A DNA stretch of 64,000 nucleotides from a bacterium. GTDB taxonomy: Bacteria > J088 > JAWLBW01. This document shows positions 23,526 through 57,368 of this stretch, in pieces. A program made the position numbers and the translations under genes. Positions within the stretch are counted from its first letter, which is position 1, and each line of letters opens with the position of its first letter. Below the pieces are notes generated by a model. The model searched no databases. It worked only from the letters and a program-made list of their open reading frames with translations, and was not told where the DNA came from. The stretch covers positions 1 through 64,000 of the forward strand of contig JAWLHK010000024.1 in the NCBI GenBank assembly GCA_041690355.1, in the 5' to 3' direction.

Positions 23526-23590
23526 GACTGGCTCCTACCTTGTCGGCACACCTGTAGTAAGGGGGTCTGCCGGCCGGAAAGGTTTTCCAT

Positions 23591-23619
23591 ATTAAACCGG
23601 ACCCCACAGGGTGTGTCAA
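23591..23619 (-). promoter_or_regulatory. Putative sigma70 promoter of OmpA-family gene
   Basis: TTGACA-N17-TTTAAT on minus strand. Confidence 0.6.
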
Positions 23620-23759
23620 GAAAAAACCAGAGCAAGCATGGGCAGTTACGGCGTGATCGTGCTCACGCCGAGCCGAATCGGCAAGAGTGCCGGAACCGGG
23701 CAAGAGACGGGAGAAAGCGGGGGGGGCCTCAACGCGGCCCACGGGGAGAATGGCGCGCG

Positions 23760-26285: not shown

Positions 26286-26287
26286 GG

Positions 26288-26833: not shown

Positions 26834-27224
26834 TCTTGGCCGTGCCGCCCGGTTCACCGTCGGCGCCGTAGCTGATCACGTCGAACTCGCCGTGCGAGCC
26901 GGGCGACAGGTACACATAAGGCTTGTTCCACGGATCCTGCTTCATGCCCCCCTTGATGTAGGGGCCCGAGCCGTCCTGGCCCGCCTCGGTCAGCGCCTTC
27001 AGACCCATCTGGGTCGTCGGATACGTGCCATGATCGAGTTTGTACAGCTCGAGCGCGCTTTCAATCGCCTTGATGTCGGCCTTCGCCTTGACGCGCTTGG
27101 CCTTGTCGGCGTTGTCGAGCAGGTTGACGGTCACCAGGGTGGCCAGCAGCCCCATGATGACGACGACGACCATGATCTCGATCAGGGTGAACCCGCGTTG
27201 ATCCCGCTTTTTTTCCGCACTCAT
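26796..27224 (-). CDS. gspG: T2SS major pseudopilin GspG
   Basis: RGFTLIEIMVVVVI, ALELYKLD.G.YPTT..GL.AL, DPW..PY.Y.SPG, SYGADG. Confidence 0.97.
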   Translation of the reverse strand: MSAEKKRDQRGFTLIEIMVVVVIMGLLATLVTVNLLDNADKAKRVKAKADIKAIESALELYKLDHGTYPTTQMGLKALTEAGQDGSGPYIKGGMKQDPWNKPYVYLSPGSHGEFDVISYGADGEPGGTAKNADITNWSSEKE

Positions 27225-27289
27225 GTCAACTCCCGAAAAATTGGGTCTGGCAGGCCGGCCGCCTTCCGGCGATCCGCCTGCGGTAAACG

Positions 27290-28531: not shown

Positions 28532-28534
28532 CGG

Positions 28535-42488: not shown

Positions 42489-43962
42489 CGCCGGTCTCGA
42501 GCGGGCGGTACAGCGCCCCGTCGGGCCCGACCCGTACCCCGGTCTCGGGAAAGTCGTGCGCCGACAGCCAGCGGATGAGATCGGCGGCGGTCCCCTCGGG
42601 ATCCGGCTCGGGAATCCCGCGGCCGGTCTGACGCGTCGAGCGGATCCTGCCGCGGACAAAGCGCCCTTTACGGTCGACATCCAGCGCCAGAACCAGGCCG
42701 GTACCATTGAAACCCGTGAGGTTGAAGGCGCCGTAAGTGGCGAAGTTCCCCAGCGAGTAGGCGATCAGCCTGCGCTTGTAGATCTCCATGGCGCGCGGCA
42801 CGTGCGGGCCGTGCCCGAGCACGACATCGGCGCCCACGTCGATCATCCGACGGGCGAACTGCATGACGTCGCCGCGCGACTCGCCGTAGAATACCTCAGG
42901 TTTCTTCGGCACGTGCAGGGCCTCGAACCCTTCGGCGCCGCCGTGAAAGGAGACGATCATGACGTCGACGTCGTTCGCGACTTCGCCCACGAGCAGCGCC
43001 GCCTGGTCGAGGCGCAGACTGTTGTTCGTGATTTCAGACGAGTGAAAGGCCACCATGCCGATGATCAGGTTCCGCTTCCGGTAGAACGTCCAGGTGCCGG
43101 GGGCGCCCGACCACCGCACGCCCGAGCGCGACAGGTGCTGCTCGGTCTGCGCCCGGCAGAACTCGCCGAAATCGTGGCTGTGGTTGTTGGCGAGCGAGAC
43201 GAGATTCACGCCGGCTTCCTTCAGATGGCGCACGTACTCCGAGGGGGTACGAAAGGCAAAGCACTTCTGCCCCGGACGGCACTTCTGCGTCGATCCGCCG
43301 TCGCAGAGCGGGCCCTCGAGGTTGGCGAAAATGACGTCTCCATCCTTCAGCAGCTCAGCCACGCGACCGAGGGGTCCCCCGGCAGAGCCCGTGGGGAGCA
43401 TCGGGTACGGGTAGTCGGTGCCCATCATGACATCGCCGACCGCCAGAATCCTCAGGTAGCGACCATCGGGCACCGTCAGAGCCGATACGCGCGCCGCCGC
43501 TTTCGCTTTCTCCATGGCCTCGACGATGGCGAGGTACTCATCGGCCTTCTTCAAGACCTCTTCCAGATCGGGGCGCGTTGGCGCAAGCTCCTGTACGCGC
43601 GTCCAGTTCGCTCTGGCTTCGCGAAAGCGACGGAGCATGAAGTTGGCCCACCCCAGCTCCCACCGGCAGTCGACGGCGAGCTGCGGGGCGTCGGCACAGA
43701 TGGCCAGGAGCCTGGCGGCTTCGTCGAAATCTTTCTCCTTCAGCGCGCGCAGCCCGCGGGTCCAGGCCTCGGCCGGGTCAGGCAACGCCTCCGGCGTCTC
43801 CCGGGCGGGACTCGGCGCAGACACGGCGGCCGGAGGCACGGGGGCCGGTCGATGTGGCGGCACGGGTGCGGCTACCTTGGCGGGCTCACGCACGGGGGCG
43901 CCTGCACAGGCCGCCAGGATCGCACCGGCGAGGAGCATGGCCATCGCGTTGACTTTGCGCAT
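42433..43962 (-). CDS. CapA-family metallophosphoesterase lipoprotein with TPR
   Basis: Lipobox LAAC; GDVMMG, NLEGPL, LANNH..DFG, SFHGG.E, GHGPHV, YSLGNF. Confidence 0.9.
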   Translation of the reverse strand: MRKVNAMAMLLAGAILAACAGAPVREPAKVAAPVPPHRPAPVPPAAVSAPSPARETPEALPDPAEAWTRGLRALKEKDFDEAARLLAICADAPQLAVDCRWELGWANFMLRRFREARANWTRVQELAPTRPDLEEVLKKADEYLAIVEAMEKAKAAARVSALTVPDGRYLRILAVGDVMMGTDYPYPMLPTGSAGGPLGRVAELLKDGDVIFANLEGPLCDGGSTQKCRPGQKCFAFRTPSEYVRHLKEAGVNLVSLANNHSHDFGEFCRAQTEQHLSRSGVRWSGAPGTWTFYRKRNLIIGMVAFHSSEITNNSLRLDQAALLVGEVANDVDVMIVSFHGGAEGFEALHVPKKPEVFYGESRGDVMQFARRMIDVGADVVLGHGPHVPRAMEIYKRRLIAYSLGNFATYGAFNLTGFNGTGLVLALDVDRKGRFVRGRIRSTRQTGRGIPEPDPEGTAADLIRWLSAHDFPETGVRVGPDGALYRPLETGVIRRENAAPGDAARASAP

Positions 43963-44100: not shown

Positions 44101-44174
44101 GGCGGCGTAGCCAAGTGGCCAGGCAGAGGTCTGCAAAACCTTGTACCCCAGTTCGAATCTGGGCGCCGCCTCCA
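44101..44174 (+). tRNA. tRNA-Cys (GCA)
   Basis: Acceptor stem GGCGGCG/CGCCGCC, anticodon loop CTGCAAA, GTTCGAATC T-loop, U73 discriminator, encoded CCA. Confidence 0.97.
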
Positions 44175-44180
44175 ATGTCG

Positions 44181-44218
44181 AAGGCCGAAATCCACACGGG
44201 TTTCGGCCTTTTCTTTTT
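44181..44218 (+). terminator. Intrinsic terminator after tRNA-Cys
   Basis: Perfect 10-bp stem AAGGCCGAAA/TTTCGGCCTT followed by T-rich tract. Confidence 0.85.
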
Positions 44219-44323
44219 CCTCCTTCTCCGCTGTTCATCGGAGTGCCCCGGGGCCCGGTGCGCGACCGGTCGTTGTGTCTTGCTGTCCGTCGTTGGCCCA
44301 TCCTGACCGTGAGGAGGGTTCGA

Positions 44324-45922
44324 ATGGCCGACGACACGCCGCTCTGGAGTTCGCTCTCGGGAAAACCCCGCAGCTATCCACGCCTCGAAGGAGACGTCCA
44401 CGTCGACGTGGCGGTGGTCGGGGCCGGCGTGGCCGGCATCATGACCGCCTGGTATCTCAAGCAGGCGGGTGCCCGGGTGGCGCTGGTCGAACGCAACCAT
44501 CTCGTCGCGGGCGAGACGCATCATACGACGGCGCACCTGACCGGGCTCCCCGACGCCGAGTTCTCGCGCCTGCGCCGGGCCTTGGGGAGCACGAAGGCAC
44601 GCGGCGTCTGGGACAGCGAGATGGCCGCCATCGATCTCCTGGAGCACGCCGTCAGGAGGAACAACATCGACTGCGGCTTCGAGCGCGTGCCCGCCGTGAA
44701 GTATGCCCCGACGCACAAGGACGTGCGCAGCCTCGAGCGCGAGATGCGGGCCATGCGCAAGCTCGGCATCGACCTCGAAGAAACGACCGACGTCCCGCTC
44801 CCCCACGCGGCCGCCTTTCGCATTCAGGGGCAGGCGAAGATCAACCCGGTGCGCTTTCTGCGCAGCATCGCCGCCATGATCCCGGGCGACGGGTCGCACG
44901 TCTTCGAACACTCGCCCGTCCACCACGCCGTCAACGGAGTCGTTCGCACGCACGACGGATTCGTGCGTTCAGAGGCCATCGTACTGGCGACCCACTACCC
45001 CTTCGGCGATCTGCGCATCGTGCCGAAACTGCACCCGAGCCTGACGTACGCCATCGCCGTCACCGGTCGTCACCGGCTGCGCAACGAGCTCTATTTCGAC
45101 AACCTCGACCCCTATCACTACATCCGGCTGCACGACCGGTACGTGATCATCGGCGGCGAGGATCACCCGATCGGGACCCCGGCCGCCGGCGAAGAGCACT
45201 GGGCGCGCCTCGTCGAGTTCACGCGGCAGACGGTCATGGAGAACCCCGTCGTTCGCCACCAGTGGTGCGGCGAGGTGCTCGAGACCCTCGACAGCCTCCC
45301 CTACGTCGGGCACCACTCTTCGGCGTCGTCGCGCTATATCGCGACCGGCTTCGCGGGCACCGGAATTACCTGGGGAACGCTGGCCGCGCGCATCAACGCC
45401 GATCTGATTCTCGGCCGCCCGAACGCATTCGCAGACCTCTTCGACCCCGACCGCATCGGGCGGCTGCGCGGCATCCGGCGAGCCGTGCGCTACAACGTCT
45501 CGGTCGCCCATCAACTCGTGCGCGGCTGGAGCCAACCGAAGTCCGACGAGCACATCGATGCGCTTCGCCCGGGCGAAGGAGTCGTCGTGCATCACGGTCT
45601 ACATCCGGTCGCCGTCTCGGTAGACGAGAACGGCGAGGTGCGCGCCGTGTCTGCGGTCTGCACCCACCTGGGCTGCATCGTCGCTTGGAATCCGGCCGCG
45701 AAAACCTGGGACTGCCCTTGCCACGGATCCCGTTACGAGGCCGACGGCGAAGTGCACACCGGGCCCGCCACCCGGCGGCTCGAGCCGGTAGACCTGGATG
45801 AGCTGGGCCCCGACACGCGCCCCCGGGTGCATCTCAAGGAAACCGATCTTCCCGGCGACGACACGCACCCCCCGAAGCAGCCGGGACATCGACCGGCCGC
45901 AAACAAACCTCCGGAGGAGTAA
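44324..45922 (+). CDS. FAD-dependent oxidoreductase with C-terminal Rieske domain (YhfW-like)
   Basis: VVGAGVAG, G.T.HTTAH, ATHYP, D.LPYVG, canonical CTHLGC...DCPCHGS. Confidence 0.92.
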   Translation: MADDTPLWSSLSGKPRSYPRLEGDVHVDVAVVGAGVAGIMTAWYLKQAGARVALVERNHLVAGETHHTTAHLTGLPDAEFSRLRRALGSTKARGVWDSEMAAIDLLEHAVRRNNIDCGFERVPAVKYAPTHKDVRSLEREMRAMRKLGIDLEETTDVPLPHAAAFRIQGQAKINPVRFLRSIAAMIPGDGSHVFEHSPVHHAVNGVVRTHDGFVRSEAIVLATHYPFGDLRIVPKLHPSLTYAIAVTGRHRLRNELYFDNLDPYHYIRLHDRYVIIGGEDHPIGTPAAGEEHWARLVEFTRQTVMENPVVRHQWCGEVLETLDSLPYVGHHSSASSRYIATGFAGTGITWGTLAARINADLILGRPNAFADLFDPDRIGRLRGIRRAVRYNVSVAHQLVRGWSQPKSDEHIDALRPGEGVVVHHGLHPVAVSVDENGEVRAVSAVCTHLGCIVAWNPAAKTWDCPCHGSRYEADGEVHTGPATRRLEPVDLDELGPDTRPRVHLKETDLPGDDTHPPKQPGHRPAANKPPEE

Positions 45923-45925
45923 GCG

Positions 45926-46183
45926 ATGGCGACCCAACCGATTCCCGGAACCGAACGCGGCAAACGGCTGGCCGGCGGATTCGCCGTCGCCGGCGCCGTC
46001 GCCATCGTGCTCTCGTACTTCGTCCTCTTCGCGCCGTGGACGGCGGCGCCGCTGCTCGGACTTCTCCTGCGCGTGGCCGGCCTGCTGCTGCTCGGGTTCG
46101 CGGCATTCTACTTCTGGGCGGCCTGGCGGCAGTCCAATCAGGGGTCGGGGCGGCCGCCCGGCGGCGAGTACCGGGGCAAGTAA
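45926..46183 (+). CDS. Small 2-TM membrane protein
   Basis: Two hydrophobic segments; SD GGAGGAG; 3 bp after upstream stop. Confidence 0.6.
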   Translation: MATQPIPGTERGKRLAGGFAVAGAVAIVLSYFVLFAPWTAAPLLGLLLRVAGLLLLGFAAFYFWAAWRQSNQGSGRPPGGEYRGK

Positions 46184-46207
46184 GGCCGAGGGATCCCCCA
46201 CATCGGG

Positions 46208-46609
46208 TTACGGCACGCGGTACAGATAGGCCGCAATGTCGCGGGCCTCGGCCTCGGTGAGGCCGAGCGCCGGCATGGCCGTTCCCGGCGCGAACGCCTG
46301 CGGATTGCGCAGCCATCGGACCAGATTGGCCGGCGAATTGGCCAACTGGCCGCCGATGTACATCTGATGGCGGAAGTCGGTCAGCTGCGGGCCGACGCGC
46401 CCGCGCGCCTGTGCAATACCGGGAATGACATGACAGGCGCCGCAGCCGTACTTCACGATCGCATCCCTGCCCCGCCCCACGTCCCCTTCGAGCTCCCAGA
46501 CCGGCTCGGTCGGGTGCGTGCCGCCGCCCCGCAGCCACAGGTGCGCGCTGATGCCGATCAGGGCGACCAGAGCGCCGGCCAGGGTGACCAGGATAGCCCG
46601 CTGTTCCAC
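46208..46609 (-). CDS. Membrane-anchored class I cytochrome c
   Basis: CGACH, GP.L, distal Met PGTAMP. Confidence 0.9.
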   Translation of the reverse strand: MEQRAILVTLAGALVALIGISAHLWLRGGGTHPTEPVWELEGDVGRGRDAIVKYGCGACHVIPGIAQARGRVGPQLTDFRHQMYIGGQLANSPANLVRWLRNPQAFAPGTAMPALGLTEAEARDIAAYLYRVP

Positions 46610-47563
46610 TCAGCCCTCCTCTGCAGGGGAACGCCGCAACGCATCGGCCCGGTCGACCCGCGCGGCAAGGCGGCGCAGATGCGTCGCGAACAACGCCAGG
46701 GCCGCCCCCGCCAGCACGGCCCCCGCCGGCATCCACATGACCATGCCGGCGATCTGCTGATCTTCGAGCGGCGTCCACGTCGAGGCCGAAAGCCGTTGCC
46801 CGTAGGCGCGGTAGAGCGGGCGCGGCGCGAACGCGATCAGCATCCCCAGGGCCGAACCGTGCAGCGAGGTCAGAAAGAGCAGCAGCGCCCCTTCGCTCCC
46901 CGCCGGGCGCCGGCGAGAGACCGGGTCGAGTACGGCGTGCCAGAAGAGCAGCGCCGCCAACAGGAAGACGGCATGCTGCGCTTCGTGCACCCAGGTATTG
47001 AAGAGCGCCGCATCGTACAGGCGCGGGGCGTGCCAGAACCAGATCGCCGCGGCGTAGACGGCCCCGGCCGCCGCCGGATGTCCGGAGAGGGATCTCACCG
47101 TGCGCCATCCGGGACGCGTGAGCCAGCGGCGGGCCAGAAAGCGACGGGCCCGATGCGGCAGGCCCCCGAATATGACCGTGAAGGGGCGTCCGAGCGTCAG
47201 GAGGGGGGGCGCCAGCACGAGCAGCGCGAGGTGCTGCACCATGTGCACCCAGAACAGCGCGGCCCCGAGCCGGTGGATCGGCGAAAGCAGGGCGGCCGCC
47301 AGCAGAAGCCAGCCGGCGAGAAAGCCGGCAACGGCGCCAGGGCCGATGCCGTGGCCCGTGCCGGCGCGGCCCCACAGCCGCCGTACGCCCCACCCGTAGG
47401 CGAACAGCAGGACCAAGAGCAGCGCGACGGGCCAGGGCTCGTACGTCCACCCGTACGACGGCGCCGCGAGCTGGTTCGTATGCGCCGACGCAGACAAAGG
47501 CCATCCCCAGACGACGAGCCCGGAGACGGTGACGGCCGCGCGAGAAAAGGTTCGGCTCAGCAT
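46610..47563 (-). CDS. ctaG: Cytochrome c oxidase assembly factor (caa3-type CtaG)
   Basis: HMVQH, WFWHAP.LY, H..QH, EDQQIAG..MW.P. Confidence 0.9.
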   Translation of the reverse strand: MLSRTFSRAAVTVSGLVVWGWPLSASAHTNQLAAPSYGWTYEPWPVALLLVLLFAYGWGVRRLWGRAGTGHGIGPGAVAGFLAGWLLLAAALLSPIHRLGAALFWVHMVQHLALLVLAPPLLTLGRPFTVIFGGLPHRARRFLARRWLTRPGWRTVRSLSGHPAAAGAVYAAAIWFWHAPRLYDAALFNTWVHEAQHAVFLLAALLFWHAVLDPVSRRRPAGSEGALLLFLTSLHGSALGMLIAFAPRPLYRAYGQRLSASTWTPLEDQQIAGMVMWMPAGAVLAGAALALFATHLRRLAARVDRADALRRSPAEEG

Positions 47564-47961
47564 GCGCGAAGGTAGAAGAAAATGGGAATGCTCTGCACGA
47601 GGATGATCATCAGCCCGGCTGCATCCAGCATCACGCCGAGGCGCGCCGTGTCGTAGCCCGCCGCCGCCGCGATGCCCTCCTCGCGGACGGTCGCCAATTC
47701 GCGCCGGCAGCGGCGCGCGATCATGCCCGCTCCCGCCGCCAGACCGACGGTCGCAACGGTGAGCCCGAGAAGCGCGACCACGACGCCGTTGAGCGGACCG
47801 AGCGCCAAAGCAGGAAACCCCCGCTGACATCCCCACTCGGCGATGTACCAGGCGCCGGCAAGATGGAGCAGCCACGCAACCATCCCGCCGAGCAGGCCGG
47901 CGGCAAGGCGCAGGCGCGACACGCCGTCACCCCCGTGCAGCACGGTACCCTCCTCAGACAT
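47557..47961 (-). CDS. 3-TM membrane protein of oxidase operon
   Basis: Three hydrophobic segments, W.LH and two Cys; overlaps both neighbours. Confidence 0.75.
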   Translation of the reverse strand: MSEEGTVLHGGDGVSRLRLAAGLLGGMVAWLLHLAGAWYIAEWGCQRGFPALALGPLNGVVVALLGLTVATVGLAAGAGMIARRCRRELATVREEGIAAAAGYDTARLGVMLDAAGLMIILVQSIPIFFYLRAC

Positions 47962-50461
47962 AAGCCCCCACGTGCAGTGCCAGGTACAGGGTAACGCCCA
48001 GCGCAGCCGTGAAACCCCAGAGCAGAAAGCCGAGCCGCGTGGCGTTCTCCAGCATCGGCGTGCGGGCGAGAGCGGCGCGACGCGTGAGCCTGAGCACCCC
48101 GAGCGTCCAGATCGTCGCGACCAGGGCGAGCAGGAGATAGGCCGTCGACGGCGCGTACCAGGCGGCCGCGTAGGCGTTGGCCCCGGGAAGAAAAGGGGTC
48201 TGCCAGAGAAGGATTCCGTGGAAAATCAGGAAGCCGCCCCCCGCGGCAAGAGCCATGGCCAGCGGCGCCAGCGGGCTCTGCGACGCGTTCGGCTGCATGC
48301 GGCGCGCGGCCGCGCGCATCGCGACCGCCCCGATCGGCATCAGGAGATAGGCGGCCGCCGGAAGCAGCAGCCCGGGAAGTGGGAGCCCACCCTGCGGCCA
48401 CGCGGCGGAATAGATGCGCAGGTAGAAATAGCTGAACACGAGCACCCCGAAACCCATGCCGAGAGTCGTCAGCGCCCCGATCATGCCCCACCAGCCGGTT
48501 CCGCGTCGGGCGACGAGCGGGAGCCCGGCCGCGAGCGCCGTGCCGCCGGCCTGAATTTTCGCCAGCGTCGCCGGGTGCGGCAAGAGCCAGGCAATCACGG
48601 CCGCGAACAGGCCGATGAGGCCGGCAACGGTGAGGAGGTAAATCTTTACGAGCACTCCGAAAAAGACCAGCAGCAGGGCCAGGGCGGCCGTCAGCGGCTG
48701 CAACGTCGAGCTGGGAAGCCATTGCACCGACTCGGGTTCGCCCGTGAGCACGTCTGTCGCGAGGGTCGCCCGCCATCCGACGGGAGCCCGGTCGAGCGCC
48801 TCCCGCGCCTGCCGCGAAGCTCCCGGCTCTTCCACATTCCCCTCCCAGGCCGGATGACGGCCTCCGACCCGTGGCGGCCGCTCCCAGGCGAAGATGGCGG
48901 GCGGCGACGGCAGGGTCCACTCGAGGCTCCCGCCCCCCCAGGGGTCAGACCCCGCCGGTTCGCCCGCGCGCATGCTGCGCAGGAGATTGACGACGAACAC
49001 GAGCACGCCGAGGGCCATCAGATAGGCGCCTCCGGTCGAAACCAGGTTGTATCCGTCGACGTTCAGCGAAGCCGGATAGCTGTAGACGCGGCGGGGCATG
49101 CCGTACAGCCCCATGATGTGCATCGGAAAGAAGGCGACGTTGAAGCCGATGAAGATGAGCCCGAACGCGATCCGGCCCGCCCCTTCGCTCAGCAGGCGGC
49201 CGGTGAACTTGGGATACCAGTAGGAAATGCCGCCCAGGAGGGGAAAAAGAACCCCGCCGATGATCACGTAGTGAAAGTGCGCCACGACGAAGAACGTGTC
49301 GTGCACCTGCAGATCGAAGGGGACGACGGCCACCATGACCCCCGTCACGCCCCCGGCGACGAAGAGAAAGAGAAACCCGAGCACGTACAGCAGGGGCGTC
49401 TTCAGCGCCGGCCGGCGCCCCCACAGGGTCGCGATCCACGCGAAGACCTGCGCGCCGCTCGCCAGCGCGATCATGAGGCTCGCCCCCGAGAAGAACAGCA
49501 GCGAGAGTTTCGGCAGCCCCGCGGCGAACATGTGGTGCACCCAGAGGCCGAAACTCACGAAGCCGGTGACCACGACCGCCATGACCACCCAGAGGTATCC
49601 GGCGAGCGGCCGCCGCGCGAACGTGGGTACGATCATCGAGACGACCCCCGTGGCGGGCAGGAACATGATGTAGACCTCAGGGTGCCCGAAGAACCAGAAC
49701 AGATGCTGCCAGAGCAGGCTGCTGCCGCCCCCCTGCGGGTCGAAGAACGGCATCCCGAATGCGCGCTCGAGCTCGAGCAGAAGAGTGGCCACGAGCAGCG
49801 TGGTGAACGCGAAGACGATCATGAGTCCCGTCACGAGCATCGTCCACGCAAAGAGCGGCATGCGGTGGAGCGCCATGCCCGGCGCGCGGAACTTCAGGAT
49901 GGTCACGACGATCTCGATGCCGGCCGTGATGCCCCCCACCTCGACGAGGCCGAGCGCGAGCAGCCAGAAGTCGAGACCACGCCCGGAGTAGCGCGTGCCC
50001 GACAGCGGCGTGTACGCGAACCAGCCGGCATCGGGGATGAGGTTCACGAAGAACGTGGCGTAGAAGAGAATGCCTCCGAAAAGAAAGCACCAGTAGCCGA
50101 ATGCGCTCAGGCGGGGAAAGGCGAGATCACGCGCGCCGATCTGCAGCGGCAGCAGGTAGACGGCAAGCCCCTCGACGAACGGCACGGCGAACAGGAACAT
50201 CATCGTCGAGCCGTGCATTGTGAACAGCTCGTTGTAGAGCTGCGGGCCCAGGATGCCGTTCTCGGAAACAGCCAGCTGGGTGCGCATCAGCAGCGCGAGT
50301 ACGCCCCCCAGCAGAAAGAAGACGAACGACGTGACGAGAAACCGCTTGCCGACCGGCTGATTGTTGACGACGGCGAGCCAGCCGACGAAGCCGGGGCGGT
50401 TCTCCCAGGTGTGATCGAAGTCGGACGGCGGCGGGGGCGAGTGACGGCGCGGCATGGTCAC
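47954..50461 (-). CDS. ctaD: Heme-copper oxidase subunit I fused to a degenerate subunit III-like domain
   Basis: TMHG, WFFGHPEVY, LWVHHMF, AHFHY, GMPRR; about 250 extra aa with several TM. Confidence 0.95.
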   Translation of the reverse strand: MTMPRRHSPPPPSDFDHTWENRPGFVGWLAVVNNQPVGKRFLVTSFVFFLLGGVLALLMRTQLAVSENGILGPQLYNELFTMHGSTMMFLFAVPFVEGLAVYLLPLQIGARDLAFPRLSAFGYWCFLFGGILFYATFFVNLIPDAGWFAYTPLSGTRYSGRGLDFWLLALGLVEVGGITAGIEIVVTILKFRAPGMALHRMPLFAWTMLVTGLMIVFAFTTLLVATLLLELERAFGMPFFDPQGGGSSLLWQHLFWFFGHPEVYIMFLPATGVVSMIVPTFARRPLAGYLWVVMAVVVTGFVSFGLWVHHMFAAGLPKLSLLFFSGASLMIALASGAQVFAWIATLWGRRPALKTPLLYVLGFLFLFVAGGVTGVMVAVVPFDLQVHDTFFVVAHFHYVIIGGVLFPLLGGISYWYPKFTGRLLSEGAGRIAFGLIFIGFNVAFFPMHIMGLYGMPRRVYSYPASLNVDGYNLVSTGGAYLMALGVLVFVVNLLRSMRAGEPAGSDPWGGGSLEWTLPSPPAIFAWERPPRVGGRHPAWEGNVEEPGASRQAREALDRAPVGWRATLATDVLTGEPESVQWLPSSTLQPLTAALALLLVFFGVLVKIYLLTVAGLIGLFAAVIAWLLPHPATLAKIQAGGTALAAGLPLVARRGTGWWGMIGALTTLGMGFGVLVFSYFYLRIYSAAWPQGGLPLPGLLLPAAAYLLMPIGAVAMRAAARRMQPNASQSPLAPLAMALAAGGGFLIFHGILLWQTPFLPGANAYAAAWYAPSTAYLLLALVATIWTLGVLRLTRRAALARTPMLENATRLGFLLWGFTAALGVTLYLALHVGAYV

Positions 50462-51451
50462 TTACTCCAGCATCTCGAGGTAGTCGACCAGGGCGTGCAG
50501 GTCGACCGGCGAAAGATAGGTGGGCGGCATGAGGTTGCCCGGCTTGATCGCCTGGGGATTCGCGATCCATCCCATCAGGCTGCCGCGCGTGTTGGGGAGC
50601 GTGCCCGCCCCGAGGGTCAGGCGCGAACCGATGTGCGTGAGATCGGGGCCGATATCCCCTGCTGCCGGCGTTCCGGCGATGGCGTGGCAACCGGCGCAGC
50701 CGGCTTCGCCGAAGACATCCTTTCCCCTGCGCTGCGCCTCGGTCCGGGGCGCGGGTGTGGGGGCCAGCCGCGCGCGCACCCAGGCATCGAATTCCGCGTG
50801 CGGCAGGGCCACGACCTCGAAGGCCATGTGCGCATGCTGCAGTCCGCAGAATTCGGCGCACTGACCGCGGAACAAGCCCGGCCGGCCGGCCTGCAGGGTC
50901 AGCGCCGTGTCGTGGTCGGGGAGCAGGTCCATCTTGCCGTGCAGCGCGGGCACCCAGAAGCTGTGAATGACGTCGGCCGAGCGGAGGCGAACGCGAACGG
51001 GAACGCCGACGGGGATGTGCAGTTCGTTCGCCGTCACGATCCCCTGCTCGGGATAGCGAACGGCCCACCACCACCGGTACCCCTCGACCTCGACGGTCAG
51101 TCCGGGTTCGGGCTCGCGCAGGCGCACCGTGGCGATCACGGTCATGATCATGAGGCCGATGAGGATGACCGCCGGGATGGCGATGCCCCCCACCACGATG
51201 AACACGGTCTGCCGTTCGGCGTCGCCGTGGCCGGCCTCGTCCCGGGGTCCCCGGCGCACAATGGCCACGAGCGCGAGGACGGTAACGAGAAGCAGAACCG
51301 CCGTGGCGATCACGAACATGAAGTTGCCGAGGGTGAGCGCGTTCTTCGCTGCCGCTGACGCCGGATCAAGCACCGATTGGATCCGGTTGCCGCACCCGGT
51401 GCCGGCGAGCGCAAGGGCCATCCCTCGACGAAGCGCGCCGCGTGCCATCAC
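50462..51451 (-). CDS. coxB: Cytochrome c oxidase subunit II with fused cytochrome c (caa3-type)
   Basis: Lipoprotein-like GTGC, DVIHSFWVP, CAEFCGLQHAHM (CuA), CAGCH. Confidence 0.95.
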   Translation of the reverse strand: MMARGALRRGMALALAGTGCGNRIQSVLDPASAAAKNALTLGNFMFVIATAVLLLVTVLALVAIVRRGPRDEAGHGDAERQTVFIVVGGIAIPAVILIGLMIMTVIATVRLREPEPGLTVEVEGYRWWWAVRYPEQGIVTANELHIPVGVPVRVRLRSADVIHSFWVPALHGKMDLLPDHDTALTLQAGRPGLFRGQCAEFCGLQHAHMAFEVVALPHAEFDAWVRARLAPTPAPRTEAQRRGKDVFGEAGCAGCHAIAGTPAAGDIGPDLTHIGSRLTLGAGTLPNTRGSLMGWIANPQAIKPGNLMPPTYLSPVDLHALVDYLEMLE

Positions 51452-52902
51452 CGCTGCTCCCGCTCGAAGGTCTGCGCCACGAGAACGTACTCCACCAGCG
51501 CCCCGAGTTCGGCATCCGTAAGCCGCCCCTCGTAGGCAGGCATGGGCGTTCCCCGCTCGGGCTCGAGCACGAATTCGCGAATCTCCTTGCGGCTCAACCG
51601 CTCGTCACTGCGGGCGAAATCGGGGCCGACCTTGCGCCCATCGCCGGCCACCGCATGACAGCTCGTGCACCCCTTGTCGGCGAAGAGCTGCCGGCCACGC
51701 TCGGCCAGTTCGGTCAACTCGATACCGGGCGGCACCGTTGGGGGCTGCTCGCGTGGCCAGCCGGTCCACGGAGACTGGATGCGAATTTCGGACAGGACAA
51801 CGAGCAGCGCGGCGGTGACCACGATGGCCCCCGAGAAAATCGGCCGCTTGCGCACGCCGCGCCAGGGTGAGCGATCGAGCAACGGCAGGAGCAGCAGAAA
51901 TCCCAGCACGAAAAGCGGAAGCAGCACGACGATCGGCACCGCCAGCCAGGGCGGGAGCAGCGCAATCATGGTGCTGTACCAGGCGTACCACCACTCCTCC
52001 ATGGGGAACACCGTTTCGACGAGATTCGCTTCGGGGTTCGGCAGGGGCGGACCCAGGATCACGGCCAGGGCCACGGCCACGAGAAAGACGACGAGTGCCA
52101 TGCCCCCCGACTTGGCCGTCGTTTCGGGAAAGAACATCTCGCCGTATTTGTCGGAATGTTTCTGTTCGTCATAGAGCCTGCGCTGCGCCTCGGCCGACGG
52201 CACCGGCTCGCGCCGCTCGCGCAGCGAGGTCGTGCCGTGCAGCACGACGAGATACAGGTGCCATCCGGCCAGCGCGAGCAGCAGCAAGGGGATCATCACG
52301 ACGTGCACGCTGAAGAACCGGCTCAGGGTGCGCGCGCCGATTTCGGTGCCCCCCTGCACGATGATCGCCAGTTCGTCGCCCAGCAGCGGAACCCGGTTGA
52401 ACATGTGCAGCACGACGCGGATGGCGTACATCGCCCGGGTATCCCAGCGCAGCACGTATCCGGTAAAGGCCATCGTCAATACGAGCACGAACATGCCCAC
52501 GCCGACGTAGTACGTCCCCTCTCGAGGCGACTTGTAGCCGCCGACGAGCAGGATGCGGAACAGGTGTGAGAAGAGCATGACGACCATGAGGCCGGCCGTC
52601 CAGTAGTGCAGTCCGCGAATGAAGTTCCCCAGCGGCTGCTCGCGCGTGATGGCGACGACGCTGTCGAAGGCCGTGTCGGGCGAGGGGGAGTAGGTGAGCG
52701 TCATGAGGGCGCCGGTGGCGACCATGACGCCGAGCAGGGTCAGGAGGGTGGCGCCATCGCCGTAGTACCACGATCCCTTGGCCACCCTGCGATCGAGAAA
52801 GTGCCGCCAGACCGGACCCAGCCCGAACCGGTCGACGACCCACCGGCGGCTGCGTTCTGCCTGCTGCAACGCCCGTCTGCGAATGGCCGAAAGCACATGC
52901 AC
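51448..52902 (-). CDS. Cytochrome b (unsplit) fused to C-terminal cytochrome c
   Basis: RGLHYW...HLFR, FTGY.L.WD, TLSRFFSVH...H heme ligands; CTSCH...MP. Confidence 0.93.
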   Translation of the reverse strand: MHVLSAIRRRALQQAERSRRWVVDRFGLGPVWRHFLDRRVAKGSWYYGDGATLLTLLGVMVATGALMTLTYSPSPDTAFDSVVAITREQPLGNFIRGLHYWTAGLMVVMLFSHLFRILLVGGYKSPREGTYYVGVGMFVLVLTMAFTGYVLRWDTRAMYAIRVVLHMFNRVPLLGDELAIIVQGGTEIGARTLSRFFSVHVVMIPLLLLALAGWHLYLVVLHGTTSLRERREPVPSAEAQRRLYDEQKHSDKYGEMFFPETTAKSGGMALVVFLVAVALAVILGPPLPNPEANLVETVFPMEEWWYAWYSTMIALLPPWLAVPIVVLLPLFVLGFLLLLPLLDRSPWRGVRKRPIFSGAIVVTAALLVVLSEIRIQSPWTGWPREQPPTVPPGIELTELAERGRQLFADKGCTSCHAVAGDGRKVGPDFARSDERLSRKEIREFVLEPERGTPMPAYEGRLTDAELGALVEYVLVAQTFEREQR

Positions 52903-52908
52903 GCTCGT

Positions 52909-53382
52909 TCACGTCATGGGTGGCAGGGATAGGAGATCGATCTCGAGAATATCGTCACGGATGCGGTTCGCGTACCGGTAGAGCGGGCGGCTCGGGGGCC
53001 CGGCCCGGGGGTTGCCTTCCTTGTCGAAGATCCCCCCATGGCAGGGGCAGAAGAACCACTCGCTCCCCGGGTCCCAGTTGACCGGGCAGCTGAGATCGGT
53101 GCAATTGCGCGAGTAGACCACGGTTTCGGCCGCCGTGGGACGCCACACGAAGACCGCCTTTTCCCGCAAGGCGCTGGCCTCATCCCCACGGGGGACCGGA
53201 ACGACGGCGCGGGTCACGGGACCGACGGGAAAGGAAGCGAGCGGCCCCACGGGCTGCCACCACTCCTTGCGTCGCTCGAGCGCCGGCGCGATTCCAAAAA
53301 TGAGCGCGGGAATTCCGAGGACGCCGGCCGTGACGACCCCGATACCCTGCACGAAGCCGATGAGCAGTTTTCGCCGTTCCAC
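52909..53382 (-). CDS. Rieske-type Fe-S subunit of bc complex with atypical box I
   Basis: Tat-like ERRKLL + TM, CTDLSC, CPCHGG, GPP.RPL. Confidence 0.9.
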   Translation of the reverse strand: MERRKLLIGFVQGIGVVTAGVLGIPALIFGIAPALERRKEWWQPVGPLASFPVGPVTRAVVPVPRGDEASALREKAVFVWRPTAAETVVYSRNCTDLSCPVNWDPGSEWFFCPCHGGIFDKEGNPRAGPPSRPLYRYANRIRDDILEIDLLSLPPMT

Positions 53383-53473
53383 CTGGGCAAGTTAGCACCG
53401 TGCGCCGTGGCGGACAAGGGGGGACGGGGGGGACCTTTGTTCACAACAACGATCTATAGTGGACGAAAGGCAG

Positions 53474-53656
53474 TAAGCACTGAGCGCTGAGCGCCGAGCA
53501 GGCAATGTGCCAACCTGCTTCACCGAAGCGCGGATGGCGAGAACAGGGTTAGCGGAATCTCACAATTCCAGCCGGCACCTGTTCCCTGTTCTGGACAGCA
53601 CTGATAATAAATCGCAAATCGTCAATTCGTCACTCTTCACTCGTCACTCGTCACTT
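53474..53656. repeat. Two period-7 arrays in divergent intergenic region
   Basis: TAAGCAC TGAGCGC x2 CGAGCAG (about 53474-53501); AAATCG/TCACTC(G/T) units (about 53607-53656). Confidence 0.8.
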
Positions 53657-53662
53657 CTCCGC

Positions 53663-55000
53663 ATGGGTCCGCTGCTGCTCAAGGTCTGGCTCCGGGTGCG
53701 GGACAGTTTCTGGTTCCTGCCCCTGCTGATCGCGCTCGCCTCCGTGGGGCTCGCCGCTGCCCTGATCCTCCTCGACGAAATCCGCGACGAAGAATACGCC
53801 GACGCGCCGTGGTGGTTCTACACGGGGAGCGCCGACGGCGCGCGTGATATCCTGGCGACCCTCGCCGGATCGATGATCACCGTAGCCGGTGTCATCTTTT
53901 CGACGACGCTGGTCGCGCTGACGCTCGCGTCGAACCAGTATGGGTCGCGGGTGCTTCGCAACTACACGCGCGATCGCGCGAACCAGCTCGTGCTCGGGAC
54001 GTTCATCGGCAGCTTTCTCTACGCCCTGCTGACCCTGTTGTCGGTGCGGGGCGAGACCTCTACGTTCATTCCCCAGATCGCCATCACGGTCGCCATCGCG
54101 TATGCGCTGACGGCCTTCGTCATGCTCATCTATTTCTTCCACCACATTTCAGAGAGTCTGCAGGCCGAGAACATCGTCGCCAGCGTGGCCGAGGATCTGC
54201 ACCATGCCGTCCGGCACCATTACCCGACCGGCATCGGCAAGCCTCCGCCGAAGGGCCCGCAGACCGACGCGCATGCCTCCCGCGCGAAGGAGGCCGAAGA
54301 CGCAGCGCCGGTGCACGCAAGCCGGGCCGGATACCTGCAGGCCATCGACGGCTCACGGCTCATGCACCTGTGTTCCCGGCACGATCTCCTTCTGCGCATC
54401 CTGGTCCGGCCGGGAAATTTCATTTTCCACGGGGTCGAGCTGTGCCGCGTGTCGCCCGGCAAGGCGCTGACGCCGGAACTGGCCGGGGCACTGAGAGAAA
54501 CGTTCATCTACGGAAGCCAGCGCACGGCAGTCCAGGACGTCGCCTTTCCCCTTCTGCAACTCGTCGACGTGGCCCTGATCGCCCTCTCGCCCTCAATGAA
54601 CAAGCCGCACACAGCGATTTCCTGCGTCGACCGGATTGGCGCAGGGATCAACCATCTGGCGGCACACGAACTCGATTCTCCCTGGCGGCTCGACGACCAG
54701 GGGACCCTGCGCGTGATTGCGCAACCCCGCACCTTCGAAGAGCTGTGCGAAATCGCCTTCAGGCAACTGCGGGAGAATGCCGGACGTCAGCTGCACGTGC
54801 TCGTACGCCTGATGGAAATTTTTGAGGAGATTCTGCGCCAGTGCAGCGATGAGAGCCGACGAAGCGCCATCCGCCGGCAGGCCCGGCTGGCCTTCGACGC
54901 GGGCATGCGCGACCTGGTCGAGCCCGAAGATCGCTCCGTCCTTCGCACCGCCTATGCGCGTTTGTGTTCTCCCGTACCGGTCGCGCCGAAGGAGAAATAG
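53663..55000 (+). CDS. DUF2254 family membrane protein
   Basis: SFWFLP, GSMITVAG..FS...VAL.LAS.QY..R, GY.Q.ID, QD..F...QLVD.A..ALSP..N.P.TA. Confidence 0.9.
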   Translation: MGPLLLKVWLRVRDSFWFLPLLIALASVGLAAALILLDEIRDEEYADAPWWFYTGSADGARDILATLAGSMITVAGVIFSTTLVALTLASNQYGSRVLRNYTRDRANQLVLGTFIGSFLYALLTLLSVRGETSTFIPQIAITVAIAYALTAFVMLIYFFHHISESLQAENIVASVAEDLHHAVRHHYPTGIGKPPPKGPQTDAHASRAKEAEDAAPVHASRAGYLQAIDGSRLMHLCSRHDLLLRILVRPGNFIFHGVELCRVSPGKALTPELAGALRETFIYGSQRTAVQDVAFPLLQLVDVALIALSPSMNKPHTAISCVDRIGAGINHLAAHELDSPWRLDDQGTLRVIAQPRTFEELCEIAFRQLRENAGRQLHVLVRLMEIFEEILRQCSDESRRSAIRRQARLAFDAGMRDLVEPEDRSVLRTAYARLCSPVPVAPKEK

Positions 55001-55414: not shown

Positions 55415-56623
55415 CTACCGCGCGCGCACGCTCTGCAACATGGTTCCGCTCATGCGCACCATGCGCCAGTCTCCCATCGGCGTTCCCTGCCCGCTGTTGA
55501 CGATCATGGCGAACGAAAGCCTGTGCTTCGGGTGGGCCCAGGCGCCCGACCCGCCGTAACCGAAGTGTCCGAACGCATGTTTCGAAACGCCGCGCGGCGT
55601 GCCGACCATGTGGTAGCCCATACGCCAGCGCATCGGGACAATGAGAACGTGATCGGGGCGGCGGCTCTGAATCTGTGTGGCGCGCTCCAGCGTCTTTTCT
55701 GAAAGCAGCCGCACGCCGTCGAGCTCGCCGCCGTTCGCCAGGCACCCGTAGAACCGGGCAAGGTCGCGCGCCGTGAACACGCCGTTCGCGGCCGGGATGC
55801 AGGCCATGATCGCGGCCGGCGACGAGAAATCGAAGCCGCCGATCCCCCGCGGCAGCAACGCCGCCTGAAACGGCTCGAAATCACTGGGGAAACCGGCCGC
55901 CCGCAAGGCCGTACGCATCGCGGCGCCCATGAGACGCATCCGCCGGCTTACCTTTCGCTTCCCCGCACGCGGTCCCCGCTCCCGGCGGACGGGGCGAATC
56001 AGCTCGGCCACGCGCGAAACCTGATTCCCGGGCACGCCGACGTAGAAGCCGTCAAGGCCCAGCGGTTCGGCAATTTCTTCTCGCACGAAGCGGGGAAAAG
56101 GCTTTCCGGTCACCCGGCGCACGATTTCTCCGGTCAGGAACCCGTACGTGAGCGCATGGTATGCATGCCGCTCCCCCGCCGGGTGGCGCGGCCGGGCGCG
56201 AGCCAGCCGACCGATCATGCCGTCCCAATCGAGCAGGTCTTCGGCCCGATCGATAAGCGAGCGCACATCGAAGAGCCCGGCTTCGTGGGCGAGAAGGTGG
56301 CGGATGCGGATCTCCCCCTTCCCCTCCTGCGCGAACTCGGGCCAGTAGCGCGCGACCGGGTCTTCATAGTCGATGAGCCCCCGGTCGGCCAGCATGTGCA
56401 CGGCGGTCGACGCGACCCCCTTCGTGGTGGAGTAGGAGACGCTCATGGTGTCGCGCTCCCACGTGTCGCCCGCCCGGTTGCGCACGCCCCCCCACAGGTC
56501 GACGACGAGCTTCCCCTGATGGTACGCGGCGATGGCCGCGCCGCCGGGGTGACTGCGGATCTGGGCCTCGAGGGCCGGGCGCAGGAGAGAGAACCGGGGA
56601 TCGAGAGTACCGTGAATGGACAT
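55415..56623 (-). CDS. Serine hydrolase, beta-lactamase/EstB family
   Basis: YSTTK (SxxK), LLAH.AG, YHA, FGHFG.GG. Confidence 0.92.
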   Translation of the reverse strand: MSIHGTLDPRFSLLRPALEAQIRSHPGGAAIAAYHQGKLVVDLWGGVRNRAGDTWERDTMSVSYSTTKGVASTAVHMLADRGLIDYEDPVARYWPEFAQEGKGEIRIRHLLAHEAGLFDVRSLIDRAEDLLDWDGMIGRLARARPRHPAGERHAYHALTYGFLTGEIVRRVTGKPFPRFVREEIAEPLGLDGFYVGVPGNQVSRVAELIRPVRRERGPRAGKRKVSRRMRLMGAAMRTALRAAGFPSDFEPFQAALLPRGIGGFDFSSPAAIMACIPAANGVFTARDLARFYGCLANGGELDGVRLLSEKTLERATQIQSRRPDHVLIVPMRWRMGYHMVGTPRGVSKHAFGHFGYGGSGAWAHPKHRLSFAMIVNSGQGTPMGDWRMVRMSGTMLQSVRAR

Positions 56624-56705
56624 GCTTACATTGTCCTGGCGTTCTCCCACGGACGCAACGGCCTGGGCGGAAGCGTGCTGCTTTGTCGCTTCGATTTTTC
56701 GCTGC

Positions 56706-57368
56706 TCAGCGGGGCGTGACCAGGATGGGGACCGCATTGCGGAGCGGATCGTCGGTCCATACGGTAACCACCGCCATACCGGCGCCGGGTGCAGGCTTCC
56801 CCTGCACGCGGACCTGCCATCGCCCCTCGGCGACGCGACTCCACGACGCCGACAGCCACGGCTGCGGCACGGTCACGCCCGTCACCGAGGACGCACCGAA
56901 GTTGCGGCGGACCACAGTGGTCACGGGTTCGGTTCCGCCCAGGGCAACGCTGTCGGGGAGCGCTTCGAATACGGGAACGATGTTCACGAGGTAGCGCACG
57001 GTCAATGCGGGCGAGGTCGCGCCCTCTTCATAGAGGGCGATCGTGCGTTCGAGCGGTCCCGCTAGCCCCTGGGGGTCGAGCTGCACGGCCAGGTGTTGCA
57101 TGGCGCCCGGGGTGAAGCGCTTGTCCCGCAGCGAGGGGATGGAGCAGTGACATCCGGCCTCGATGCGGCCGATCACGACATCGCGGTCCGCCACGTTGCG
57201 GAGGGGAATGTAGAAGGTCGGCCGATCGGTTTCGTGTACGCGGCCCGCATGAAACGGCGCCTCCGGCTGCTCCAGGGGGCCCGCCGCAGCCGGCGCGGCC
57301 AGCGCGGCAGAGAACGCCAGACAGACGAGAACGATGTGTTTCCCTTTGCGGTCGGCGAGGTCCCGCAT
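56706..57368 (-). CDS. DUF1573-like Ig-fold secreted protein
   Basis: Signal peptide; N.....VVI..I.AGCHCS.P......PG. Confidence 0.75.
   Translation of the reverse strand: MRDLADRKGKHIVLVCLAFSAALAAPAAAGPLEQPEAPFHAGRVHETDRPTFYIPLRNVADRDVVIGRIEAGCHCSIPSLRDKRFTPGAMQHLAVQLDPQGLAGPLERTIALYEEGATSPALTVRYLVNIVPVFEALPDSVALGGTEPVTTVVRRNFGASSVTGVTVPQPWLSASWSRVAEGRWQVRVQGKPAPGAGMAVVTVWTDDPLRNAVPILVTPR

Follow-up and report, generated by a model that had tools for sequence, protein, structure and literature searches.

Linked operons for respiratory complexes III and IV are said to have been described by Soo et al. in 2017 in non-photosynthetic relatives of the cyanobacteria. We know of no Rieske or cytochrome b genes described as linked to the caa3 oxidase of Thermus thermophilus, an enzyme (PDB 2YEV) in which CoxI is fused to CoxIII and CoxII carries a fused cytochrome c. 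In the obligate bcc–aa3 supercomplex of actinobacteria (PDB 6ADQ, 7RH5), complexes III and IV are wired by membrane-bound c-type domains and not by a soluble carrier. Cytochrome b proteins with a C-terminal class I cytochrome c domain form published clades that are scattered over Planctomycetes, Verrucomicrobia, Acidobacteria and other groups, a distribution that has been explained by lateral transfer. The seven-gene operon analyzed here resembles these systems in the CoxI+III fusion, in CoxII with its fused cytochrome c, in the wiring by membrane-bound c-type domains and in the cytochrome b–c fusion. It lies in a window (the whole stretch of DNA that was analyzed) of 64,000 nucleotides, which covers positions 1 to 64,000 of contig JAWLHK010000024.1 from a bacterium of the GTDB lineage J088; JAWLBW01 (assembly GCA_041690355.1).

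With a probability of roughly 0.6, we read this operon as encoding a functional quinol:O2 oxidoreductase module, in which a Rieske/cytochrome b–c segment is joined to a caa3-type A-family oxidase, and which would represent a distinct, laterally transferred and uncharacterized subfamily that works by the mechanism proposed below. Substitutions that are found throughout the family, purifying selection and a canonical caa3 paralog in the host genome indicate that it is a conserved functional variant and not a product of decay, as the initial annotation had suggested.

The Rieske and cytochrome b subunits

The operon consists of seven open reading frames on the minus strand (46208-53382), whose junctions abut or overlap by a few bases. 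Gene identities were obtained from Pfam and NCBIfam profiles, and residues were assigned by PDB alignments with codon checks. The gene list and coordinates of the initial annotation proved to be correct, and the heme b, CuA, CuB/heme and three CxxCH ligand sets are intact, as it had claimed, and invariant in the family alignments. The family was surveyed by a pattern scan of about 186,000 genomes, one genome per species (GTDB), in which 94 of 96 matched stretches were confirmed and 80 loci were kept for analysis. Scanning of positions 45700-53800 for promoters and terminators gave results that were not above chance (1 promoter-like match against 0.5 expected, and 8 terminator-like matches against 5.3 expected).

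A Rieske centre is defined by its two histidine ligands, which also give it a high, pH-dependent potential. The Rieske iron-sulfur subunit of the operon (157 amino acids, 52909-53382; Pfam PF00355, 33.3 bits) has a twin-arginine N-terminus and one transmembrane anchor. Box II is standard, C112-P-C-H115-G-G (53032-53049). Box I reads C94-T-D96-L-S-C99 (53086-53103), and the PDB alignments place D96 (codon 53095-53097) on the box I histidine, so that the substitution of this histidine by aspartate is confirmed. The stretch CTDLSC aligns with CTHLGC of Thermus, which is also the sequence of the other listed PDB Rieske proteins. Compared with the box I pattern C-x-H-x-G-C, the protein therefore has Asp for His, with four cysteines and the box II histidine present. 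NCBIfam scores for Rieske models were below cut-off (PetC 41 vs 250; proteobacterial Rieske 36.6 vs 97.4; the actinobacterial QcrA 26 vs 275).

Asp96 and the box II histidine occur together in all 79 family loci with a Rieske gene; the gene is absent from the remaining one of the 80, at a contig edge. The four cysteines, the disulfide pair and the twin-arginine export motif are invariant or conserved in the family. H115 is its only invariant histidine, which leaves no substitute histidine ligand. A HMMER search, exhaustive over 1.84 billion representative proteins, placed the substitution within a wider set of relatives. Among the 150 proteins listed, the box I residue was Asp in 16, His in 125 and another residue in 4, and the motif was not found by pattern in 5; all 16 Asp-bearing proteins were among the 21 best-ranked. 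At E <= 1e-30, Asp was present in 12 of 13 representatives. The thirteenth, P0244, is 58% identical and keeps the histidine (CTHLSC).

High-potential Rieske proteins have a Ser and a Tyr after box II that form hydrogen bonds to the cluster; the present protein has G and F at these places (CPCHGGIF). By its position, Asp96 would replace the lost histidine as the fourth ligand of the cluster (Cys2-His-Asp [2Fe-2S]). With an anionic ligand gained and two hydrogen-bond donors gone, the potential of the cluster would be lower than that of a standard Rieske protein, and the centre is probably a low-potential one.

The second gene (484 amino acids, 51448-52902; Pfam Cytochrome_B 134 bits, Cytochrom_C 42.7 bits) encodes a cytochrome b whose b6-like N-terminal half is fused to a subunit-IV-like half and to a C-terminal class I cytochrome c, with CTSCH located within 51655-51675. 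The heme b histidines H99, H113, H200 and H215 (484-amino-acid numbering) are invariant in 26 aligned sequences, as are the GYxLRWD[ET]R, EEW and CxxCH motifs. The quinol oxidation (Qo) site has the stretch P300-M-E-E-W-W-Y-A-W308 (51979-52005). HMMER aligns W304 with the W and W305 with the Y of the reference PVWY, and E303 falls on motif position 1 or 2, depending on a one-residue gap. The initial annotation had described a change from PEWY to EEWW; the deviant motif is real, but this pairing is an ungapped reading in which the register of the Glu depends on the gap. The cd1 helix, which forms part of the Qo lining and is where the Rieske head docks, reads GYVLRWDTR (from 52441), compared with GYSLPWDQ in b6. 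In place of the Qo motif P-[EDV]-W-[YF] and the cd1 motif LPW(G/D)Q, the protein has P-x-E-E-W-W and L-R-W-D-[ET]-R, with a Glu and a Trp retained. The heme-cn cysteine is absent (YGDGA vs YCLGG in b6), and the NCBIfam scores are 162 against a cut-off of 325 for cytochrome b6 and 97 against 500 for QcrB_actin.

Searches of a 5.8-billion-protein collection, in which only the 8000 best candidates were scored, returned at least 473 relatives of the cytochrome b–c protein at E <= 0.001. The best 120, the window's own protein included, are 52-60% identical to it, and their Qo motif reads EEWW in 111 and EEWY in 5, the motif not being found by pattern in the other 4. In the 80 family loci, E303 and W304 are each present in 80/80 and E302 in 76/80, and the W305 position is occupied by Trp in 76 and by Tyr in 4. 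Quinol would be oxidized at this remodeled Qo site; the box II histidine and the Glu of the motif are kept, so that bifurcation into both b hemes could run.

The oxidase and its proton paths

K362, Thr359 and a Glu of subunit II are residues with known roles in the K-pathway of A-family oxidases. The CoxI+III fusion of the operon (835 amino acids with a CoxIII-like tail, 47954-50461; TIGR02891 678.6 vs cut-off 670.75) has ASGAQVFAW where the mycobacterial protein has PTGIKFFNW. The K-pathway Lys is consequently a Gln (Q338, 49448-49450), and this substitution, which had been noticed initially, is borne out by PDB alignment and codon. A334 and S335 occupy the P358- and T359-equivalent positions. 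In CoxII (329 amino acids, caa3 type with a C-terminal cytochrome c, 50462-51451; TIGR02866 169.2 vs cut-off 147.7), the position of the Glu in transmembrane helix 2, which we take to be the K-pathway entrance, is hydrophobic (region 51167-51214, aligned to the canonical paralog of the host). The K-pathway thus deviates at three points: Lys to Gln, the Thr359-equivalent to Ser, and the subunit II Glu to a hydrophobic residue.

The D-pathway is altered as well, and more extensively than the initial annotation had indicated. The CoxI stretch PRLSA lies on PRLNA, with S119 (50105-50107) at what we take, by the R. sphaeroides numbering, to be the N139-equivalent position. Further changes are V101 (50159-50161) at the N121-equivalent, E183 (49913-49915) at the N207-equivalent, and E97 (50171-50173) at the G117-equivalent, the last being an extra Glu in helix II one turn below the N121 position. 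R111-D112 are also listed among the variant proton-path residues. H260, E262 and Y264 are kept. The accessible text of bioRxiv 10.1101/040717 names N121, N139 and N207 as the Asn gate of the D-path, and that of Murali et al. (2024) gives the A-family two conserved proton channels.

The same pattern was seen in the 120 best CoxI relatives, own protein included, for which residues were counted at R. sphaeroides-equivalent positions. The K362-equivalent is Gln in 119 and Met in 1. All three gate asparagines are replaced: the N139-equivalent is Thr in 103, Ser in 13 and Ala in 4, the N121-equivalent is Leu in 93, Val in 15, and Met, Ile and Ala in 4 each, and the N207-equivalent is Glu in 119 and Asp in 1. 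The extra Glu at the G117-equivalent and the entrance Asp at the D132-equivalent are present in all 120, and the terminal E286-equivalent is Glu in 115 and Asp in 5. The Y288-equivalent and all His ligands were found in 120/120; the six His ligands of heme a, heme a3 and CuB, and the helix-VI cross-link Tyr, are likewise invariant in a second CoxI alignment of the family. In the 68 loci with CoxI, the K362-equivalent is Gln in 59, Leu in 1 (L080), Met in 1 (L098, Sericytochromatia) and Lys in 1 (L115), with 6 unreadable because the alignment is cut. The N139-equivalent is Thr in 46, Ser in 17, Ala in 2 and Asn in 1 (L111), with 2 unreadable; the N121-equivalent is Leu in 51, Ile in 7, Met in 6 and Ala in 2, with 2 unreadable; and the N207-equivalent is Glu in 64 and Asp in 1, with 3 unreadable. 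In CoxII, the CuA ligands H, C, E, C, H and M are intact, and H163, C198, E200, C202, H206, M209, C252, C255 and H256 are at least 97% conserved in 65 sequences.

With the Lys, the Thr and the subunit II Glu gone, the K-path is probably unused. Substrate protons would instead be taken up through a rebuilt, carboxylate-rich D-path that includes the entrance Asp, the terminal Glu, Leu/Val, Thr/Ser, a Glu and one more Glu. Some point mutations at K-path and Asn-gate sites abolish the activity of model enzymes. Others (N139T, N139D and N207D) abolish pumping while turnover continues, according to the accessible text of two studies of model enzymes (bioRxiv 10.1101/040717; PMC7196763), and because of these decoupled mutants a reduced or differently gated pumping is a reasonable expectation. 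Relative to canonical A1 oxidases, a lower H+/e- ratio or a different gating is probable, and by analogy with the mutants reduced or uncoupled pumping is plausible.

Three smaller genes complete the operon. The first encodes a three-helix membrane protein (3-TM protein; 134 amino acids, 47557-47961) with no Pfam or NCBIfam match. Homologs are present in 46/80 loci, always adjoining CoxI+III, and conserve W30, E42, G44, C45, P126, L131 and the almost invariant C-terminal C134. The protein has the motif AW..HL...Y.I.E(F/W)GC, with E-(F/W)-G-C in helix 1 and a conserved His; this Glu/Cys/His pattern could bind a metal or form a disulfide. An AF2 model has three long helices (pLDDT 91). Foldseek gave no match to the PDB at E <= 0.001, a wide structure search found generic helical bundles only (Z up to 10.4, below the meaningful level for helical bundles), and the atlas matches were unnamed hypothetical clusters only (0.90-0.91). 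In terms of partners, a model of the 3-TM protein in complex with CoxI+III scored 0.82, compared with 0.00 for the best of three controls; this mark was reached by 58/80 solved complexes and 2/110 mismatched pairs, counts that are rough since own alignments were used. The runs agreed in at least 89% of contacts, and the partner pLDDT was at least 77. The modeled interface comprises CoxI residues 193-198, 288-328, 570-573 and 681 (833-residue chain), of which 288-328 cover helix VII, with two CuB His, and lead to helix VIII with the S and Q of the former K-path. The 3-TM protein is accordingly predicted, from this model, to be an extra oxidase subunit.

The other two genes encode a Caa3-type CtaG, a copper-site assembly factor (46610-47563; Pfam PF09678, 182 bits), whose start is presumably the ATG at 47561-47563 and which has homologs in 39/80 family loci, and a membrane-anchored class I cytochrome c (133 amino acids, 46208-46609; Pfam Cytochrom_C 28.7 bits). 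The latter has CGACH and a Met-Pro axial ligand motif, with C56, C59, H60, M112 and P113 at least 97% conserved in 33 sequences. Electrons would pass from the cytochrome c domain on cytochrome b, possibly by way of the anchored cytochrome c, to the cytochrome c of CoxII, CuA, heme a and the heme a3-CuB site, where O2 would be reduced to water. From the operon linkage and the fused cytochrome c domains, we infer that the bc segment and the oxidase form a supercomplex.

Family distribution and host genome

The substitutions are not private to this genome, since homologous operons carry them (the Rieske Asp in 79/79, E-W in 80/80, and Gln in 59/62 readable loci). The family spans species genomes labeled with about ten phyla, the labels being those of the submitters, which can be wrong for metagenome-assembled genomes (MAGs). 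Of the 80 loci, 33 are labeled Planctomycetota, 14 Verrucomicrobiota, 12 with Desulfobacterota-type lineages, 6 Bdellovibrionota, 5 Bacteroidota/Rhodothermota, 2 Armatimonadota, and 1 each Myxococcota, Sericytochromatia, Acidobacteriota and Krumholzibacteriia, while 4 are unclassified or 'Deltaproteobacteria' only.

The order Rieske-cytb-CoxII-CoxI on one strand was found in 55/80 loci. CoxI is present in 68/80; nine of the 12 loci without it have <900 bases after cytochrome b, and the other three have 1368-2541 bases. The Desulfobacterota group is marked by the rearranged order CoxII-CoxI-(3-TM)-Rieske-cytb. Six of its loci with Desulfobulbaceae/Desulfobacterales labels (L056, L071, L081, L087, L089 and L112) have CoxII-CoxI+III-(3-TM)-Rieske-cytb-cytc and form a well-supported subclade; carriers from these groups deserve attention as members of lineages usually seen as anaerobic sulfate reducers or relatives of cable bacteria.

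Ratios of nonsynonymous to synonymous substitution rates (dN/dS; Nei-Gojobori, eight close locus pairs, unsaturated dS only) were 0.02-0.44 over the seven genes, with 0.05-0.44 for Rieske, 0.05-0.19 for cytochrome b and 0.06-0.19 for CoxI+III. These values are well below 1, as would be expected if the prediction of a maintained module held, and indicate purifying selection on all seven genes.

The three changes had been described initially as jointly rewired. Their co-occurrence stands, with all three in 59 of 62 readable loci; functional coupling does not follow from it, because the genes travel together and are inherited together, and co-occurrence then shows shared descent and not necessarily functional interdependence. 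The exceptional loci indicate that the CoxI Lys position can hold another residue while the bc changes are in place. L115 (Tepidisphaeraceae label) has an Asp-Rieske and an EEWW cytochrome b, yet its CoxI has the canonical P-T..K. In L111 (Chloracidobacterium label), CoxI reads P-T..Q, and the N139-equivalent is still Asn. The mixed states of L115, L111, L098, L080 and the Rieske representative P0244 may be intermediate steps.

A quick maximum-likelihood tree was built from 58 CoxI rows with a single long-branch outgroup, the canonical paralog of the host; L115 was left out, its CoxI being cut by a contig end. The tree departs from the submitters' taxonomy, with Syntrophobacteraceae, Rhodothermales, Armatimonadota and Sericytochromatia rows among Planctomycetota, and this mismatch fits lateral transfer. 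L111 is sister to all other CoxI rows (SH-aLRT 99). The order of the substitutions is tentatively hinted at by this tree, and no more.

The module is sparse and patchy in its distribution. Genome G001, from the same family as the host, carries all seven genes in the order seen here; its cytochrome b is 57% identical. In three other genomes of the same phylum, which is very small in the collection, cytochrome b matches were distant only (E 1e-12 to 8.5e-8). In the phylum of L043 (Pirellulaceae label), 4 of 301 sampled genomes match at E <= 1e-80, the centre genome counted, at most five candidates per genome having been scored.

Markers rate the host genome (4.64 Mb) as 100% complete. Besides the variant, it encodes two further heme-copper oxidases, a canonical caa3 and a B-type-looking pair. 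The operon's cytochrome b is the sole cytochrome b of this genome. The canonical caa3 operon is located on contig 14 at 22755-28651 (locus L038, 2755-8651) and comprises CoxII-c, CoxI, CoxIII, CoxIV, CtaG and CtaA; its CoxI has N, N and N with P-T-G-V-K and is 42% identical to the variant CoxI. On contig 1, at about 367448-369582 (L039, 5449-7583), a small CoxII (155 amino acids) and a 556-amino-acid CoxI, 31% identical to the variant, resemble, by sequence, a B-type (ba3-like) oxidase; upstream of the pair is a response-regulator/GGDEF gene. The ActD marker of alternative complex III (ACIII) was found on contig 2 (265583-266074, 146 bits). One possibility is that ACIII supplies the canonical caa3 of the host with electrons and that the variant bc segment is reserved for its own linked oxidase. 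In G042 (Verrucomicrobiales label), the variant is likewise the only cytochrome b, and G041 and G043 have a second one.

A fusion of a FAD-dependent oxidoreductase (DAO family) to a canonical Rieske domain (CTHLGC...CPCHGS) is encoded at 44141-45922 (+) and followed by an 85-amino-acid reading frame with no family (45926-46183, +); both are convergent with the last gene of the operon. The fusion was considered as a part of the module and rejected: 49/80 other loci gave a match, and among the 12 matches listed the FAD part was covered in L071 alone, the other 11 being Rieske cross-matches. Other genes in the neighborhood have no evident link to the operon, namely a DUF2254 membrane protein (53507-55000, +), which is divergent from it, a PGA_cap-family protein with a TPR repeat (42433-43962, -) and a beta-lactamase-fold protein (55415-56737, -).

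Weighing the readings and comparison with known systems

Several points weigh against the reading of the operon as a distinct quinol:O2 oxidoreductase subfamily with the proposed mechanism. Members of the family are known from their genes alone. One close Rieske representative (P0244) keeps the histidine, and the bc part can pair with a Lys-keeping oxidase (L115), so that the changes appear not to be strictly interdependent. The ligation by Asp96 and the lower potential are drawn from the position of the residue and from general Fe-S chemistry, and the proton-path interpretation is built on homology to Rhodobacter and Paracoccus and on mutant phenotypes that need not transfer to a co-adapted natural enzyme. 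Variants of the K- and D-channels are reported, in the accessible text of Degli Esposti et al. (2021; PMC8239418), for archaeal A-family oxidases, so the loss of the K-path Lys is not unprecedented. The complex model was made with CoxII absent, and in the native enzyme CoxII may itself sit where the model puts the 3-TM protein. As to the quinone type of the host, there was no match to MqnA/D (PF02621) or MenA (TIGR00751) and no Ubi hydroxylase above cut-off in its genome, where four UbiA-family prenyltransferase genes were found, one of them beside the canonical caa3 operon.

A fuller version of the preferred reading can be put forward tentatively, as a possibility for which we would give clearly less than even odds. 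It holds that a one-channel A-type oxidase is wired to a Cys2-His-Asp bc segment; that the K-path has been abandoned and protons enter by the D-path Asp, the two new Glu and Thr/Ser, perhaps with the help of the 3-TM Glu/Cys on helices VII-VIII; and that this low-potential, weakly pumping or non-pumping module was laterally acquired by sediment or microoxic bacteria, including sulfate-reducer lineages, to consume O2. If this is true, a carboxylate-ligated cluster of the Rieske fold would have been found for the first time in a natural bc complex, and the oxidase would be a natural counterpart of the laboratory 'decoupled' mutants.

The alternative that survives best, although we regard it as unlikely, is an ordinary, fully coupled bc–caa3 segment with the usual donor, Q-cycle and full pumping, in which the substitutions are compensated idiosyncrasies. 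All cofactor ligands are kept, as are the D132-, E286- and Y288-equivalents, the Qo Glu and the box II histidine, CoxI and CoxII both exceed NCBIfam equivalog cut-offs, and as the sole Rieske/cytochrome b complex of the host and of G042 it may be the main complex III. However, at least six near-invariant positions have changed together and then been fixed across roughly ten phylum labels, single changes such as N139T/D and N207D suffice to decouple model enzymes, and the presence in the host of a canonical caa3 with standard residues and of an ACIII marker suggests a division of labor.

The absence of a bifurcated Q-cycle, which the initial annotation had entertained, is a doubtful proposition. 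In that case the Asp-Rieske protein would be cluster-less or structural, and the cytochrome b–c protein a simple quinol dehydrogenase or an electron conduit to the oxidase. The loss of the defining Rieske histidine and the heavy changes in the Qo pocket and the Rieske docking helix (EEWW, LRWD[ET]R) are what would be expected of such a protein, but the four cysteines, H115 and the disulfide pair are invariant, the family conserves the twin-arginine motif, a signal for export of proteins already folded with their cofactors, neither of the b-heme His pairs varies, and the Rieske dN/dS is 0.05-0.44. The residues lend no support to this proposition, since the two b hemes, the Glu at Qo and the histidine of box II have all been kept.

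Far less probable still is that the oxidase reduces an acceptor other than O2, such as nitric oxide (NO), or that electrons enter the module from a donor other than quinol. In favor are the altered proton channels, a feature of the NO reductase (NOR)-type relatives within the superfamily in the accessible text of Murali et al. (2024), and the presence of the module in many anaerobe-labeled MAGs, for example of Desulfobulbaceae and Syntrophobacteraceae. Set against this, the cross-link Tyr, the three CuB His and the CuA site are invariant, whereas that text describes NOR families without the Tyr and defines NOR by its lack and by a FeB site with Glu; the operon also encodes the copper assembly factor CtaG, and its CoxI exceeds a cytochrome c oxidase equivalog cut-off. 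Given that the family never departs from the Tyr and the CuB ligands that mark O2 reductases, NO appears to be an unlikely acceptor. Decay, a pseudogene cluster or sequencing errors private to the assembly can be dismissed, since the unusual residues are the one thing that speaks for them, each of the seven frames is open, dN/dS is well below 1, and the homolog survey, with the same residues in 80 independent assemblies and hundreds of metagenome proteins, refutes them.

A search of the open literature found no account of Asp in box I of a Rieske protein, of a Qo motif reading EEWW or of the present oxidase clade; supplements and subscription papers, which may list variants, were outside its scope. 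Among the matches listed for the motif strings, CTDLGC and CTDLSC did not occur and those for EEWW were unrelated. A conserved His-to-Asp change in the Rieske protein of a quinol-oxidizing complex would test ideas on cluster potential and on proton-coupled electron transfer at the Qo site. The oxidase half would be a natural experiment on the roles of the K-path and the Asn gate in proton delivery and pump coupling, with residues fixed by evolution at sites where point mutations uncouple pumping in model enzymes. The presence of the module in anaerobe-labeled lineages may matter for how these handle O2. Two carriers by source name, Phragmitibacter flavus and Phycisphaerales bacterium AB-hyl4, are possibly cultured and would then be within experimental reach.

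Among known enzymes, the decoupled aa3 mutants N139T, N139D and N207D of Rhodobacter and Paracoccus resemble the family in its Thr/Ser at the N139-equivalent and its carboxylate at the N207-equivalent. In contrast to the mutations, the family changes are natural and fixed, and along with them N121 and the K-path residues are lost and a further Glu is gained, so that the phenotype of the variant is not to be read from single mutants.

The b6c menaquinol:cytochrome c reductase of Bacillus and other Firmicutes and the cyanobacterial b6f complex share with the variant a b6-like N-terminal half, its best NCBIfam and PDB matches being to cytochrome b6, and helix-D histidines that are 15 residues apart (H200 and H215 in the variant). 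Unlike them, the variant has no heme-cn cysteine, has cytochrome b fused to subunit IV, and has Asp in Rieske box I. The published cytochrome b–c fusion clades carry PEWY or PDWY, and EEWW is not mentioned in the main text of that publication.

In terms of the oxidase, the best PDB match to the variant CoxI is the mycobacterial protein (E 4e-133). The actinobacterial enzymes keep the Rieske His, the Lys and the Asn (the CoxI residues as judged from the alignment), and the variant does not; NCBIfam actinobacterial models are also far below cut-off for it (QcrB 97 vs 500, QcrA 26 vs 275 and CtaC 122 vs 250). It differs further from the actinobacterial bcc–aa3 in having its genes in one operon and a cytochrome c fused to cytochrome b. 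Thermus caa3 provides the best solved relative of CoxII (2yev_B, E 1.3e-61), and its 2yev_A matches CoxI 29-691 (E 3e-118). Compared with this enzyme, the variant family has a different small subunit, the 3-TM protein being without a structural match, and its CoxI has Gln for the Lys of the K-path, two additional Glu and none of the gate asparagines.

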